Source: an uncultured Planctomycetaceae bacterium (GTDB lineage: Bacteria; Planctomycetota; Planctomycetia; Planctomycetales; Planctomycetaceae). From it: a stretch of DNA of 64,000 nucleotides. Made by a program: the position numbers. Every line of letters begins with the position of its first letter. The first letter of the stretch is position 1. The stretch covers positions 62,001 through 126,000 of the forward strand of contig CAXBME010000002.1 in assembly GCA_963976765.1 (NCBI GenBank), read 5' to 3'. Positions 18,001-27,000 of this stretch are shown in pieces.

Positions 18001-21000
18001 CGATGACGTTCGGCACGATTCCGGCAGCAGCGTTCATTCGCGTTCCGGCCGACCCGACCAGGCCGTCGGTACCTCTGCCCTGGCTGTTTGCGAAACTGAC
18101 AGCACTGGTCACAAAGAAGAAAAACGCTGACAGTTCCACGGAACAGAAATCTGATCCGCTCGACAGAATCTTCGGAGCGGCCGTTCGCGCGTGTATCGAT
18201 TTCAAGTTCGTTACTATTGGCATCGCTGCTGCATTACTCGTCGTCGCGCTGAAGCTGCCGGTCGCTTCAGAGTTTTTCCCAAAAGACATGCGGGACCAGT
18301 TTCCGATCGAGATCTTCCTGCCGGAGAATTCGACGATTGAGCAGACAGACGCCGTCGCCAGACAGGTTGAAACGATCATCCAGAAGTTGAGCCCGTTGAC
18401 TGACGCTGTCGGACAGCCCGTTGCTGACGAGTCAGGCGAGCCGGTTCAGCAGATTCGTGCATTCCGAACCATGGTGGGTCGCGGTGGCTGCCTCTGGCCA
18501 TGAGCGGTGGTCCGCTGTGGGAAGGCATGTCCTGGTGCATGATCTACTGACTGATCGTCGCTACGCTGCTAACACTGCTCGTCGTCCCGGCGCTCTATGC
18601 GTTGCTTGTCGAAGTTTTCAATGTCAAACCCGTTCAGATTGCATCGGCATGAACGGCTCGCAACCCGGCTCGCTTCGCAAGAATCGACACTGACACCACC
18701 TCAGTGGCACGTACAGGCAGGTCGAGCAACAATGAACAATGCTGTCGCCCTCCCGCCATGCTTTGTGATCGTCCAACCTCAATGAACGAAATTCTTTACT
18801 ACGACCGATATCGCGAGGAAGTCTGCTCCGAAAAGATCTATGGCGACAGGTCGTTACGTTGGACTTATGGAACGACGGCAGGAAAAATCGCCCTGCACCT
18901 GCTGGTGAAACGCGCCTTGTTTTCCCATTGGTACGGTTGGTCAATGGACCGCCCTGGGACGCGTCGGAAGATTGAACCGTTCATCGAAAAGTTTGAACTC
19001 GATGCCAGCGAATTCGCGCTTCGCCCCGATGAGTTCAAAAACTTCAATGAGTTCTTTTTTCGAAAGCTGAAGCCCGAAGCCAGGCCGATTGATTCAAACC
19101 CCTTGTCCATCTGTTTCCCTGCTGACGGACGGCATCTCTGCATACCCGACCTTTCAAGCGGCGATGGCCTGTTTGTGAAGGGCGCAATGTTTAACCTAAG
19201 AACGCTGATCGGCGACGACGAACTTGCAAGCCGCTATGAAAATGGGAGCCTGCTCCTGTCCCGACTCTGCCCGACGGACTATCACCGATTCCACTTTCCC
19301 ACCAGCGGCACCCCCACGCCGGCAAGACTGCTCAACGGGCACCTCTTTTCGGTCAATCCGATAGCGCTTTGTCAGAATATTCAAATCCTTGCGACCAACA
19401 AGCGGGTGTTGACGAAGCTGGTTACGGAGTCGTGTGGAACAGTGCTGCTCATCGAAGTTGGTGCGACCTGTGTCGGTGGCATTTGTCAGACGTACGAACC
19501 AGACGCTGCCGTCGCCAAGGGAGAAGAGAAGGGATATTTCCGATTTGGAGGCTCATCCACGATCGTGATTTTCGAACCTGGTCAAGTCGTCTTTGACGAC
19601 GACCTGATCAAGCACTCCAGCCAGCACCGTGAACTCTACGCCCGAATGGGCGACTCGATGGGGACCATCCTGTAACACGTCAGAAGCTCTGAGAAACAAC
19701 CAGACAATCGTGCTCATGCCGGTTAATCCCCGAAAACATGCCCAAACATCTCGCAGACGCCACGAGATACGATCTCTGACCTGCATTTCTTTTCGTGCCG
19801 TTAAAGATCAGGCGCGAACGTCATGCAGCGAGAGCGACTGTGAACCAGACGTCGCGACTCAGGTACAGCAACCCGACGTGCAGGTGAGGAGTCCTGAAAA
19901 CCAATGAGCGATCTCGGACACCCCTCGCCTGCACGTCGGACTACTTACCCTGCGACACCCAACTCATAGCCCCTCAAAGCTTTGTCCGGAGAGTTTCAAG
20001 CAACCGGCAACGACACCAGCATGGCTGGTGGTTCAATGGCAGGCTGCTGGTCATCTTCCGGAGCGAGAACGGTATCGACCAGGAAGTAGAGAAGCTGACG
20101 CAGCTTTTCGTTGTCGACGTTGTCCGCCAGTGTTTCCGCACGGGCTCGGGATTTTTCGACCAGAGCGTCGGCCTTTTCGAAGACGCCTGTTTCTTCAAAC
20201 AGACGCTTCAGGCGAGGCCCGCGGCGATCGTCTGTCGACTCCATATTGATGATTTCCTGCAACTCCGCACGCTGTTCAGGAGAAGCCGCATCAATGGCCA
20301 GGGCGAGCATCACCGTAGGCCGCAGCGCCTGGGCATCCTGGCCGGAGAGCAGTTTGTTATTGCTGTCGCCACGCCAGTCTTTCAGGTCGTTGAGAACCTG
20401 GAAGCCGACTCCCAGGTGGCGGCAGAACGATGGGACCAGTTCTTCGTACTTGTCCATCGGCCCGGCCATGCGGAGTCCGGAGTACAACGCGGCCTCGAAG
20501 GCCGGCGATGTTTTCAGAGCATAAATCTGCAGCGCATCGAGCGGGGTCAGTTCCAGCGTCGGTCGCTGCTGCCAGGCCATTTCGGCACCCTGACCGTCAC
20601 ACAGTTTGATATGCGCTTGCGACATGCGGTCCGTGACGTCGCAGGCGACTTCTGCACCGAAGTCTTCGCGACAGGCGTTGAGTAACCGATAACCGAGACC
20701 GATCAAATGGTCGCCAACATTAATGGCAGTTCCGAGATCGTATTCGCGATGCAGGGTTTCTCGACCGTAGCGATACATGTCGTCATCTTCGATGTCGTCG
20801 TGGACGAGCGAGGCTTTGTGGAACGCTTCGATCGACATCGCGACCCGGGCAACGCCGTCAGGGACAGGTAAACGGTCCACGTTTTCGAGGTTCGTTTTCT
20901 GCAACTCTCCATCGGTCATCGCGTCGTAGGCGGCCAGCGTGATAAACGGTCGGAATCGTTTACCACCGTTCTGCAGCCAGTCGTAGGCCAGTTTTTCGGT

Positions 21001-24000: not shown

Positions 24001-27000
24001 TGCAGACCTGCTGAAGTGCCATGACCGTTGTTGCGGTCGATAAGGCCGACGTCGAAAGCTCACCTTCCCAATGCGGCAGCTCGCCCGGCTTGTTCCGGCA
24101 TTCGGCCAGAAGCAAATCCTTCGCCGTTTCGAAGGTGGATGTGAGTTTCTGCAAATCGATCATTGGATGCCGTAGGGTGGGCACTGCCCAACAGAAGAGT
24201 AGGCTGGGTCAAGCCCCAGCTTGAAACCATTGCTGGGACACGTCCCAGCCTGCAATCTCGGCCCACCTTACAAAGCTCGAATGATCGCCGCCGCGCTTTG
24301 ACCAATGGCAGTGCGGTTTACGGTGATCGCCGTCAGGTTTTTCAAAGGCTGCGGACCATCGTGCACGACGTTCAGACGGCAGCGAGGATCCGGAATTCGG
24401 TAGTTCAATGTGGCTGGCAGCGTTTCGTTCTGAAGAGCGAGCAGGCTGCCGGCAAGTTCAACCGCGCCGGAACCATCGTCGAAGTGGCCGAAGTAACTCT
24501 TCAGAGCCGTCACCGGAATGCGTCTGGTCGCATCGCCGAGTCCCCAGTAGTAGCCCCGAGCTTCGATCACGTCGTCCCGCTGAGTGCTTTTACCGTGCGC
24601 GTTGATGTGGCCGATCTGGTCGGGTTCGATATTTGCCCGTCGCAGCGCGGCGTGGATCGAACTTGCGATGCCTCGCCCATCGGTACTGTTCGGATGACCG
24701 GACGCGTCGCTGCCAGCTCCAACCCCCAGGACTTCCGCGTAGATTCTGGCTCCACGGGCAACCGCGTGTTCGTACCGCTCAACAATGAATGCCGCAGCTC
24801 CCTCGCCAACAATCGTCCCGTCGCGAGTGACGTCGAACGGTCGGCAGGCGTGCTCCGGGTCGTCGTCGCGCTGCGAGAGGCTTTCGAACAGATTGAACTT
24901 GGTCAGATCGACGGGGTGAATGTTCGAGCTGCAAGCTCCCACAATCATCACGTCGGCAACTCCTCGTTCGATGACCCTTACAGCTTCACCGAGCGCCAGC
25001 AACGCGGAAGCATCCCGACAGGTGATGGTGTTATTCGGCCCCTGGGCATTATGTTCGATGGCGACGTGGCAGGCCGGCATATTGGGGAGTTGCTTGAGCA
25101 ACCACAGCGGGGCAATTCTTCCAAGGCCGTCTTCGCCCCAGCGAGTAAACTCGACAACGTCGTCCATTAAACTTTGACAGGCGGCCTCAATGAGTTCTTC
25201 AGGACGACTCGAAATACGACCGCAGCCAAAGACGACGCCCAGTCGAAGTGGATCAATCTGGTCATGTTCCAGCGAGGCATCTTCCATTGCCATCGCTGCT
25301 GCGGTCACTCCCAGTTGAATGCCGCGTGACATCACCTTGATGAACTTCCGGCAGTAAATGTGATCCTCGGGGGCGAAGTCGCGGATCTCGGCAGCCAGCC
25401 TGGTCGGGTAGCCGGCATTCGGCAGCGATTCCAGAAGTCCGATGCCCGACCTTCCTGACTTCAGGCTGTTCCAGAATGCGGCGTTGCCAATTCCGTTCGG
25501 CGCAACGGTGCCGACTCCGGAAATGACTACTCGATTTTGTTCGGGCACCCAGACCATCTCGCCTTTCAGTCCGCAGGCTCTGAGCTTGAACATCTGGCGA
25601 CGTTCAAGTTTCGCAGACTGCTTGCAGCGTCATTACGAAATGCAGGACTCAGTCGTTCAAAATGTCGACCGGAAATCGGCGTCACATTAGAGGACGACTC
25701 AGTAAATCGCACATTTCACGGCAGTGACTACAAGCCCCAGCAAATGAGATGTAATCAGCAAATCAGGACAGAACCTTGCATTTCGCCAGACACCACCGGA
25801 CCCACTCACGGTCGTTTTGTCGAGCTGATTGCAGAACTGGCTGAGATTACACCCCTGCGTCCCGATGGTGTCAAGAGCCTGACCTTCAAGCTTCGGAACG
25901 GCCCGAGCAGCCGATCGACGCAAAGTTTGCCAAAGTTTGCCGACGCCACCTGAGGAATGCCGAAGGGAAGTGCTTCAAAGCTGACGCTTCTCCCTTCGGC
26001 ATTCCTTGTTCAGTCTTGAACATTCGACTCATTCGATTCCGGGATCTCATCATGCCCTGTTCTGGCTACACCTTCGGGCAGGTGTTCGAAAAGTTGGGCC
26101 GTCGATGGACGTAGATGCCACCATTCTCGAAAACCCGCGTTGATCTGCATCTATCAGCAGCTTGAGCACTTTCAGAATTCGTTTTCAGTGTTCTGCAGGA
26201 GGGCCACAGAGGGTGCAATGGCTATTCCGGGTGCCCGCTCCTGCACAGAAACCATGAAAATGGTCTACATTCGGGAATGGGAAGGGACGAGGATTTCGCA
26301 CGAATGTCGGAGTGATCGGTCGGTCGAGCGTTTCTCAAAATCCGACAATTTCTCACTAAGACGTCGGTTGCTGGCTCGTCAATGAGGCAGCACGACTCAG
26401 CGGCGCAGTTGTTTTTCGCAGAGAGTTGCGGGATCGGCGGTTGCCTGAACGGGGACATGAAAGTCCGGGGACGAAGATGAACAACGGGCAGGTCAGCCAG
26501 TCCGAGTGGGTCCGGGAGGCTCTTCTCAAGTTTGAAGGGCCTCTGGTTCGTTATGCGCAGCGAATCACCGGTGAGCTGGAGCTGGCTCGCGATGTCGTGC
26601 AGGAAACATTCCTCAAGCTCTGCCGGCAGAATCGAGCGGAAGTGGAGGGCCATCTTTCTCAGTGGCTGTTCACCGTCTGCCGAAACAGGGCTCTGGACGT
26701 TCAGCGAAAGGAGCGTCGAATGACGACGACCACTGCTCTTGATCAGCGAACTTCGACTGCCGGAGACGACACACCGGATGCCGCAGCCGAACAGAAGGAC
26801 TCGATGGCCCGGGTGCTTCAGCAGCTCGACCGCCTGCCCGACAACCAGCAGGACGTCATTCGGCTGAAATTTCAAAACGAACTCAGCTACCGAGAGATCT
26901 CCGAAATCACCGGCCTGACGGTTTCCAACGTCGGCTTCCTGCTTCACGTCGGTCTGAAACGCCTGCGTGAACTGATGCAGGTTGAACTGGCATGAGCGGG

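Follow-up and report, generated by a model that had tools for sequence, protein, structure and literature searches.

Divergent two-domain class II terpenoid cyclases of planctomycetes have been set apart from squalene-hopene cyclase (SHC) as an 'SHC-like' or 'unknown function' clade, and the parts of two studies that treat them state their function and structure as not determined and name them as an open question (PMC7306690; PMC12414744). These enzymes matter because their substrate bears on the evolution of triterpenoid cyclases and on the sources of hydrocarbon fossils. The sister group of the clade, according to PMC12414744, consists of cyclases that act on head-to-tail polyprenyl substrates. 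The main text of both papers leaves unnamed DUF116, the barrel, ferredoxin and radical-SAM partners and the 600/605 residue pattern that we describe below; fig. S10 of PMC7306690, on gene context, may cover part of this. In A. acidocaldarius SHC, the F605W exchange gives a tricyclic product from geranylgeraniol with ~90% selectivity and changes of G600 favoured two rings (PMC11165016), data that concern a C20 alcohol in another enzyme than ours. For DUF116 (arCOG02078), earlier work already proposed that the domain transfers electrons and that it is fused to polyprenyl synthetase in Pirellula (PMC5898192). Cheilanthane biosynthesis is listed as not characterised in a 2026 preprint.

Here we analyse a 64,000-nucleotide stretch of DNA from an uncultured Planctomycetaceae bacterium (the window), in which a gene fusing DUF116 to a polyprenyl synthase lies beside a gene for an SHC-like cyclase. 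We propose that both belong to a core of five genes for making a cyclic isoprenoid lipid by a pathway that requires neither oxygen nor squalene, a proposal that, taken over all six of its steps, we regard as evenly balanced between right and wrong.

Genes of the locus

Gene calls recovered the three minus-strand genes that a preliminary description had grouped together (Table 1), and Pfam confirmed the domain content it gave: DUF116 and polyprenyl_synt in the first gene and both SQHop_cyclase domains in the second. The third gene contains the N and C ketoacyl-synt domains. The cyclase frame starts either at an ATG at 24163 (658 aa) or at a GTG at 24184 (665 aa). As also described previously, an ordinary hopanoid set exists in addition to the divergent cyclase: the source genome carries its own SHC on contig C3 (680 bits on TIGR01507), together with two PF00494 genes and an HpnH-like gene.

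Table 1 Features of the fusion and cyclase locus, in window coordinates
Feature	Position	Strand	Remarks
DUF116::trans-polyprenyl diphosphate synthase fusion, 619 aa	19996..21855	-	core gene; gene call and Pfam
DUF116 domain, aa 84-235	21151..21606	-	soluble alpha/beta; predicted Fe-S module; Pfam E 6.8e-37
DUF116 domain residues: seven conserved Cys (C127, C134, C145, C148, C151, C193, C221) and fusion-specific Glu171			
Polyprenyl synthase domain (polyprenyl_synt), aa 289-543	20227..20991	-	Pfam E 3.3e-42
'SHC-like' two-domain class II terpenoid cyclase, 658 aa	22187..24163	-	core gene
Cyclase catalytic DxDD motif, aa 354-357 of 665-aa frame	23114..23125	-	
Cyclase G-x-Y-F-x-x-x-W-Y motif, Tyr633 and Trp638	22268..22294	-	A. 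acidocaldarius SHC Gly600/Phe605 positions
FabF-like ketosynthase, 441 aa	24268..25593	-	neighbour, outside pathway; Asp at catalytic Cys position

Membership of the ketosynthase in the cluster did not hold up. Of 80 Planctomycetaceae loci, only one has it next to the pair, and the count is again one when just the 51 loci reaching 5 kb or more upstream are considered; no instance occurred among 80 metagenome loci. It also falls short of a FabF condensing enzyme, with Asp194 in place of the catalytic Cys and 328 bits against a cut-off of 494. The ketosynthase is an unrelated neighbour of the pathway genes.

Co-occurrence and natural losses

We followed the genes through 251 Planctomycetota genomes, which are related, so that the counts are not independent events. 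The cyclase occurs in 66 of the 251; all 66 carry DUF116, 63 of them in long frames, and none of the 146 genomes without DUF116 has the cyclase. The two lie at most 8 kb apart in 54 of the 66. No PF00494 squalene synthase match was found in 21 of the cyclase genomes, and none of these 21 has an ordinary SHC.

The preliminary description had missed three further core genes. They encode a prenyltransferase-like protein with a single barrel (contig C13 of the source genome), a 2x[4Fe-4S] ferredoxin (C15) and a radical-SAM enzyme (C1). The barrel protein is present in 62 of the 66 cyclase genomes and in none of the 185 others, the ferredoxin in 47/48 cyclase-positive and 0/32 cyclase-negative genomes. 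A twitch/SPASM-type radical SAM (E<1e-90) was detected in 51 genomes, all cyclase-positive, and a B12-binding radical SAM adjoins the core genes in all 11 that were inspected of the remaining 15. Across 80 metagenome loci the two types exclude each other (46 twitch/SPASM, 10 B12-binding, none with both).

Natural losses connect the DUF116 cysteines to this gene set. Genome G005 gave no match for the cyclase, barrel, radical SAM, ferredoxin or GTPase; its fusion keeps all synthase motifs and has lost C127, C145, C193 and C221. G007, a single contig, holds one intact fusion copy and a second copy without the Cys cluster. Loss of the cyclase or duplication of the fusion has thus gone together with decay of the DUF116 cysteines, the synthase staying intact. 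In summary, the 66/66 co-occurrence supports the earlier claim that fusion and divergent cyclase form a separate, non-hopanoid terpenoid pathway and, with the decay of the cysteines upon cyclase loss, the claim that DUF116 is functionally tied to it. 'Undescribed', as the pathway had been called, is too strong in the strict sense, because PMC7306690 and PMC12414744 already describe the cyclase clade and a probable precursor other than squalene, and PMC5898192 the fusion.

The DUF116 domain

The cysteine motifs noted earlier are well conserved: 95-96 of the 96 fusion homologues retain the seven residues, as do all 15 stand-alone DUF116 sequences compared. Glu171 is present in 103/103 fused domains and replaced by Thr/Ser in most stand-alone proteins; the Glu171/Glu198 pair is specific to the fused form. 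In 55 of 61 Planctomycetales genomes, the open frame that holds the DUF116 match is 565-728 aa long. The label 'membrane domain' had to be dropped: in the AlphaFold model (pLDDT 94.6), residues 46-252 form a helical cap and a parallel alpha/beta domain, the only hydrophobic peak in DUF116 (aa 175-193) maps to a core helix and strand, and the two N-terminal transmembrane helices of arCOG02078-type DUF116 are absent from both sequence and model. The model found no significant structural match (best E 0.047 in Foldseek; best Z 5.7 in VIA), and comparison with IspH-type and other known Fe-S reductase or dehydratase folds returned generic alpha/beta matches only (Z <=5.7). We therefore assign its role from the Cys pattern and gene context, and consider it probable that DUF116 binds Fe-S.

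Polyprenyl synthase and cyclase

The synthase domain has two Asp-rich motifs, the second being N/D-D-x-x-D, and a KT motif. Small residues (Ala/Ser) ahead of the first Asp motif are the pattern of long-chain synthases; here these are Ala348/Ser349, and by its motifs the domain appears to be of the long-chain type. The Arg-Arg pair after the first motif is incomplete, its second residue being replaced by Tyr (Tyr363 here) in 88 of 96 homologues, and Lys347 is conserved in 93 of 96. The fusion synthases form a clade of their own (100/100 support). They depart, judging from these residues, from ordinary chain elongases and might make an unusual linkage. No IspB-type synthase was found in G000, G005 or G007, all of which retain futalosine-pathway genes, although the absence in G000 (95 contigs) could be an assembly gap; motif typing identified such a synthase in each of the 12 other genomes to which it was applied. 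In genomes that lost the cyclase or duplicated the fusion, the fusion synthase appears to have taken over the role of the long-chain (quinone) synthase. The quinone of Planctomycetales is MK-6, a chain length taken from one taxonomic paper (PMC7397252).

The cyclase scores 90.4 bits on TIGR01507, below the curated cut-off of 431.1, and its model has the beta-gamma double barrel of SHC by Foldseek. It fits the published description of the SHC-like clade as two-domain cyclases of PVC bacteria (550-700 aa) with catalytic residues kept, and its relatives are named Planctomycetaceae. DxDD is present in 74/74 homologues. Tyr and Trp occupy positions 600 and 605 of A. acidocaldarius SHC in all but three of 99 cyclase frames (96; the remainder end early), in a register set by profile alignment at ~19% identity. 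This pair suggests a product with two or three rings.

Radical-SAM and barrel partners

The common radical SAM shares 28-35% identity (E 1e-49 to 1e-68) with eight proteins whose sequences match the motif blocks published for the chain-coupling enzyme Mss, a comparison made through motif descriptions and look-alike paralogues, while the threshold of E<=1e-50 and at least 30% identity refers to the characterised enzyme. Of Mss blocks I, II and V, CNxxCxGC and GGEP are present, with DAYYD/IEPC where the Mss-like set has DFWND/VEPC. Its match to HpnH is weaker (E 3e-10; TIGR03470 E 9e-12). Searches with the B12-type partner returned generic B12 radical-SAM names only; we presume that it resembles the Grs ring synthase (GrsA/GrsB). 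The barrel gene lies 3' of the fusion in 60 of the 64 metagenome loci with room downstream. Of the Zn ligands of protein prenyltransferase beta subunits, the barrel protein keeps Asp and has Glu for Cys and Tyr for His.

Proposed pathway and alternatives

We infer the chemistry of the whole pathway. That the gene set is one dedicated pathway needing no HpnCD/Sqs (step 1) is very likely from co-occurrence and co-loss. The product of the synthase domain is probably a long polyprenyl diphosphate, all-trans and head-to-tail, with ~C30 as the likeliest length (step 2). In step 3, on balance the slightly favoured course, the DxDD cyclase would protonate the far-end alkene and stop at two or three rings, with the tail keeping its polar end. 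More tentatively, the barrel protein may handle the diphosphate end and move the chain onto a non-thiol acceptor (step 4), and, on a similarly tentative footing, the radical-SAM enzyme may form a further C-C bond on the chain, as a cross-link or extra ring (step 5). Step 6 would place Fe-S at two sites of DUF116, one of CxxCxxC plus a further Cys and one of three Cys plus Glu; it is our leading suggestion, put just short of even, that DUF116 and the ferredoxin serve the radical step as an electron relay or radical-holding site rather than as a membrane anchor. A more specific and more speculative version, which we consider unlikely, has the pathway make tricyclic head-to-tail polyprenoids (cheilanthane skeleton) without oxygen: a C30 chain would be closed to three rings by a naturally F605W-like cyclase, and the Mss-like or B12-type enzyme, with the open Fe-S site of DUF116 holding the first radical, would then join or cyclise chains further, possibly to a membrane-spanning polycyclic isoprenoid lipid in bacteria.

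Which cyclase DUF116 accompanies elsewhere had been left unchecked; for Planctomycetota, fused DUF116 tracks the SHC-like cyclase. DUF116 might instead assist ordinary hopanoid synthesis, perhaps by supplying the missing route to squalene where SHC is present and HpnCD/Sqs absent. Ordinary SHC without PF00494 in 17 of the 38 genomes that have only stand-alone DUF116 would fit, as would shc within 10 kb of DUF116 in 3/8 loci of one family (f28), a figure legend in 10.1101/2025.11.21.689855 that puts DUF116 in a cluster with SHC and HpnH, and the squalene-supply gap published in a section of PMC7306690. However, 21 of the 38 lack an ordinary SHC and, with the SHC-like cyclase absent from all 38, contain neither type of cyclase; stand-alone DUF116 adjoins fmt in 16/18 loci. 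Finding the seven-Cys protein beside fmt in cyclase-free genomes indicates that the domain is not intrinsically a terpenoid enzyme. Since co-occurrence ties the fused form in the window to the SHC-like cyclase and not to SHC, we regard an accessory role as very improbable.

The preliminary description made DUF116 itself the redox enzyme, removing the diphosphate reductively as IspH does or joining prenyl units head to head, so that a squalene-like hydrocarbon reaches the cyclase. Its fusion to the synthase, the dedicated ferredoxin, the structural closeness of the cyclase to SHC and the 21 genomes without HpnCD/Sqs agree with this, and the three Cys at strand ends could form an open-site catalytic cluster with Glu171. 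The barrel, ferredoxin and radical-SAM partners make other jobs available to an Fe-S domain, however, and the barrel, whose gene follows the fusion, is the more natural diphosphate handler. The synthase domain apparently substitutes for an ordinary long-chain elongase, the sister clade reported in PMC12414744 uses head-to-tail substrates, and the obligate radical-SAM gene is left without explanation, so we think this role unlikely. Less likely again is tailoring as in hopanoids, with the chain cyclised to an olefin, an adenosyl group added as by HpnH and DUF116 only donating electrons: in the source genome a nucleosidase-like gene adjoins the GcvH-like/ferredoxin pair and the radical SAM is weakly similar to HpnH, but it is far nearer the Mss-like set, a B12-binding enzyme takes its slot in a subset, and for the nucleosidase-like gene no match fell in another cluster locus, the sole one being next to an ordinary shc. 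A meroterpenoid would arise if the barrel prenylated an aromatic acceptor, such as 4-hydroxybenzoate from a chorismate-lyase-like neighbour, and the cyclase closed rings as MstE does. The barrel has conserved Tyr and Asp/Glu residues without the thiol-binding Zn set, and a chorismate-lyase-like gene (Atlas score 0.97) is directly 3' of the fusion in loci L131, L138 and L139. That gene is nevertheless found in only 19/48 cyclase-positive genomes, also in 5/32 cyclase-negative ones, and in 0/28 long metagenome loci counted, and in the source genome it adjoins a HemN-like gene on another contig; this reading seems to us improbable. The preferred reading, a squalene-independent pathway, defines a minimal set of five genes, predicts the type of chain and the number of rings, and identifies genomes that naturally have or lack the pathway for comparison. 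The pathway is widespread in bacteria, and its gene set opens a route to the products of SHC-like cyclases. If correct, it would give DUF116 its first function, and a tricyclic polyprenoid product would point to a possible bacterial origin of an orphan class of sedimentary biomarkers.

Comparison with known systems

The cyclase shares with SHC its fold (best Foldseek match, TM 0.68), DxDD and most aligned N-terminal cavity residues, and differs in the bulky Tyr/Trp at 600/605 and a missing seven-residue loop after F434. Unlike the hpn pathway, its clade occurs without HpnCD/Sqs, and the source genome holds a separate, full hopanoid set. We assign it by description to the SHC-like clade, likewise a divergent planctomycete two-domain cyclase in a context away from squalene in the pertinent parts of PMC7306690 and PMC12414744. 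Its published sister clade (Lon15, AtoE, Bra4 and PlaT2, as treated in PMC12414744) also uses head-to-tail polyprenyl chains but needs an epoxide, whereas the window clade keeps DxDD; no epoxidase was seen among the recurrent neighbours of the loci examined. The barrel protein has RabGGTase beta, a protein prenyltransferase subunit, as its best solved-structure match (E 7e-10), with an apparently permuted repeat order and no alpha subunit noticed alongside. The common radical-SAM partner is sister to proteins fitting the motif blocks of the membrane-spanning lipid synthase Mss (PMC13159169); the substrates are fatty-acyl tails for Mss, which joins them, and tetraethers for Grs, whereas the setting here involves a prenyl chain and a class II cyclase. 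Finally, the window domain shares with arCOG02078/DUF116 (PMC5898192) a Cys-rich flavodoxin/receiver-like domain, and the fusion stands apart by its lack of N-terminal membrane helices, its own Glu171/Glu198 and its tie, through co-loss, to the cyclase pathway.

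A conserved gene set around a divergent cyclase

The three minus-strand genes of the preliminary description lie where it had placed them, and the ordinary hopanoid genes it reported elsewhere in the genome are also present: an SHC on contig C3 (680 bits), two genes of the squalene-synthase family PF00494 and an HpnH-like gene. Within the fusion, DUF116 occupies residues 84-235 and the polyprenyl synthase residues 289-543. The SHC-like cyclase contains both cyclase domains, but its score of 90 bits is well short of the 431 bits required of a true SHC.

Coordinates of features in the window
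Feature	Position	Strand	Remark
Region with a short fragment resembling an RND-type transporter	17580-18503; 10946-16914	+; -	fragment between a phosphatidylserine decarboxylase gene and RecB/RecD-like genes; names presumed from the gene listing
DUF116-polyprenyl synthase fusion	19996-21855	-	619 aa
SHC-like cyclase	22187-24163	-	658 aa from the ATG at 24163; residue numbers follow a 665-aa frame
REP-like short repeats	24171-24249		between ketosynthase and cyclase
FabF-like ketosynthase	24268-25593	-
Structured non-coding stretch	~32800-33200		may be an RNase P RNA gene

We analyzed 251 Planctomycetota genomes, sampled evenly and each at least 90% complete; since these include kin and are not independent, the co-occurrence counts are patterns and not tests. 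DUF116 occurs in 105 genomes and the SHC-like cyclase in 66. All 66 cyclase genomes have DUF116, 63 of them as a frame of at least 450 aa; of the other three, two lie at contig ends and the third matches only in part, next to the cyclase. The cyclase was found in none of the 146 genomes without DUF116 and in none of the 38 with stand-alone DUF116 only. The two genes are at most 8 kb apart in 54 of the 66 genomes. Among 80 loci, 64 have the cyclase just 5' of the fusion, as do 42 of the 51 long ones. Twenty-one of the 66 lack any PF00494 match and none of these 21 has an ordinary SHC, so the cyclase can do without the known squalene routes; the gene set as such is independent of HpnCD/Sqs.

We conclude that a real and conserved pathway surrounds an orphan cyclase clade that is already in print. 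The SHC-like clade, with a probable non-squalene precursor and geological interest, is described in PMC7306690, and its function and structure are stated to be undetermined in PMC12414744. The fusion had already been reported in PMC5898192, and DUF116 is given in an SHC cluster in 10.1101/2025.11.21.689855. We found no characterization of the cluster in the literature searched, which left most subscription journals out of scope.

The ketosynthase, previously counted as a cluster member, is ruled out by synteny: of 80 Planctomycetaceae loci, only that of the nearest relative has it next to the pair (1 of 51 when an upstream stretch of 5 kb or more is required), and none of 80 metagenome loci does. 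Asp replaces its catalytic Cys, as Glu does in a paralogue on contig C10; each of the two proteins may act as the non-condensing partner in a ketosynthase heterodimer. Three 14-mers from the REP-like repeats were tested, and two of them occur 6 and 7 times genome-wide, against 0.06 expected. Promoter and terminator scans gave chance-level results only, and no RNA holder is listed for the region.

Partner genes in a wider operon

Locus comparison places the fusion within an operon in deeper lineages, in the order desulfurase, GcvH-like carrier, CobW-like GTPase, small Cys protein, ferredoxin, radical SAM, fusion, single-barrel prenyltransferase-like protein (barrel) and cyclase. Counterparts in this genome are a radical SAM on C1 (sharing 67% identity with a radical SAM that adjoins a cluster), a GcvH-like gene and ferredoxin on C15, a barrel on C13 and a GTPase on C19. 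The barrel occurs in 62 of 66 cyclase genomes versus 0 of 185 others, and the ferredoxin in 47 of 48 versus 0 of 32 chosen genomes.

The twitch/SPASM-type radical SAM has a match in 71 genomes at E<=1e-40; in 51 the match falls below 1e-90, and all of these carry the cyclase; the matches in the remaining 20 are paralogues of greater length. Fifteen cyclase genomes lack this type, and in all 11 of those inspected a B12-binding radical SAM lies beside the core genes. The two types never occur together in 80 metagenome loci (46 with the former, 10 with the latter, 0 with both). GTPase and carrier accompany the twitch/SPASM type only (among long metagenome loci, 14 of 22 against none of 6). By genome, the GTPase is found in 47 of the 51 twitch/SPASM-type genomes and 2 of the 15 other cyclase genomes, but in none of 14 controls; the corresponding search for the GcvH-like protein was too insensitive, missing genomes whose loci carry the gene.

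Ahead of the ferredoxin there is often a PQQ-type beta-propeller gene, as in L142, L174, L177, L178 and a number of metagenome loci; most of the clusters concerned lack the GTPase. A chorismate-lyase-like gene was rejected as a core member. In this genome a HemN-like radical SAM and a chorismate-lyase-like gene are neighbors (L156:3357-5332), and three other genomes have HemN-like matches close to the terpenoid cluster (L133, L138, L141). A plasmid search returned four radical-SAM matches with generic names.

Active sites and structures

Across 96 sequences the synthase keeps both Asp-rich motifs and the KT motif, with Ala/Ser before the first Asp-rich motif, as is typical of the long-chain type; Lys347 and Tyr363 are family-specific departures. 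The cyclase DxDD motif is present in 74 of 74 sequences. Structurally, the cyclase comes nearest to A. acidocaldarius SHC (TM 0.68), followed by OSC and drimenyl diphosphate synthase. In a profile alignment, SHC residues W312, D447, W489, Y495 and F601 are matched in the cyclase, the seven-residue loop after F434 is absent, and Gly600 and Phe605 correspond to Tyr633 and Trp638. The latter two are invariant in 21 of 21 sequences and present in 96 of 99 cyclase frames, the remaining three ending early. For the A. acidocaldarius enzyme, PMC11165016 reports that F605W converts geranylgeraniol to tricyclic ent-isocopalol with ~90% selectivity and that G600 changes favored two rings.

The barrel is nearest to RabGGTase beta (E 7e-10) and apparently permuted. 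It has invariant Tyr, Asp and Glu residues, and Glu and Tyr replace the Zn ligands Cys and His, so we rejected a role as a Zn-dependent thiol prenyltransferase. Two matches to the barrel among longer proteins, neither joined to synthase or cyclase, are weak evidence on barrel fusions. An apparent cyclase-fusion frame in locus L140 has no cyclase domain by Pfam and was taken as a frame overlap.

The "membrane" label once attached to DUF116 does not hold: the model (pLDDT 94.6) shows a soluble helical cap and a parallel alpha/beta domain, and the sole hydrophobic peak of the region falls within the alpha/beta core. Fold searches gave no specific relative and no usable Atlas match, which shows neither novelty nor absence. 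By the secondary structure of the model, C127, C193, C221 and E171 are each placed after the end of a parallel strand, and C134 and the CxxCxxC motif lie in a loop region, which suggests two predicted metal sites.

Stand-alone DUF116 and natural losses

Stand-alone DUF116 keeps all seven Cys, with mostly Thr or Ser at the Glu171 position. It adjoins fmt in 16 of 18 loci (L111-L128), and a def-fmt-DUF116-rsmB run occurs in 7 of 8 loci of family f28; its role is presumably a housekeeping one. None of the 38 stand-alone-only genomes has a PF00494 gene; 17 have an ordinary SHC without PF00494 and 21 have no ordinary SHC. The 17 belong to two families, which we take to be anammox. Genome-wide counts of DUF116 near a cyclase domain therefore mix a tight link (fused) with looser proximity (3 of 8 f28 loci). 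No relative of stand-alone DUF116 came up in a scan of viruses.

Two Planctomycetota genomes tie the DUF116 cysteines to the gene set. In G005 (99% complete), cyclase, barrel, radical SAM, ferredoxin and GTPase are all without a match; its fusion keeps every synthase motif, has lost C127, C145, C193 and C221, and has Asp at 171. In G007 (one contig), an intact fusion copy is accompanied by a duplicate without the Cys cluster. Together, these cases indicate that the predicted metal ligands of DUF116 are retained only while serving the pathway.

G005, G007 and this genome gave no match of the IspB-type long-chain synthase (for the last, possibly an assembly gap). It is present in 12 of 12 other genomes typed by motif; five further genomes with at least three synthase matches were left out of typing. 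Futalosine-pathway genes are kept in all three genomes, and Planctomycetales have MK-6 (taxonomic paper PMC7397252). The most economical interpretation has the fused synthase able to provide a chain of ~C30.

A variant of class II terpenoid biosynthesis and its relatives

The pathway is a variant of class II terpenoid biosynthesis, for which we propose the following mechanism. The synthase domain would make a long head-to-tail polyprenyl diphosphate, which the cyclase DxDD motif would protonate without oxygen, probably giving two or three rings. The barrel may carry out a transfer at the diphosphate end, and a radical step would form a C-C bond with DUF116 as its putative Fe-S partner. The preliminary description instead had DUF116 as a redox partner passing a linear polyprene from the fused synthase to the cyclase; we consider this chemistry unlikely and favor the role in radical C-C bond formation. 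An electron-transfer guess for DUF116 appears in PMC5898192. Cheilanthanes are listed in 10.64898/2026.01.29.702649 as biomarkers without a characterized pathway, and the same source adds that hopanoid breakdown yields these compounds too.

In 20 of 251 genomes (L161-L172), the best match to the radical-SAM partner is a paralogue; eight were checked and all fit the motif blocks published for the membrane-spanning lipid synthase Mss (PMC13159169). Several of the 20 have a B12 radical-SAM neighbor. Assignment of these paralogues to Gms (PMC11214058 and its preprint) is not supported, as no tes-like neighbor stood out among the neighbors listed and the motifs fit Mss.

The radical-SAM partner itself is 28-35% identical to the eight Mss-like paralogues and is far apart from HpnH. 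According to a proposal in the review PMC13459092, radical C-C couplings of this kind need a holder for the first radical, either an auxiliary cluster (Tes) or cobalamin (Grs). By analogy, this need could explain the extra sulfur- and metal-handling genes of the B12-free variant.
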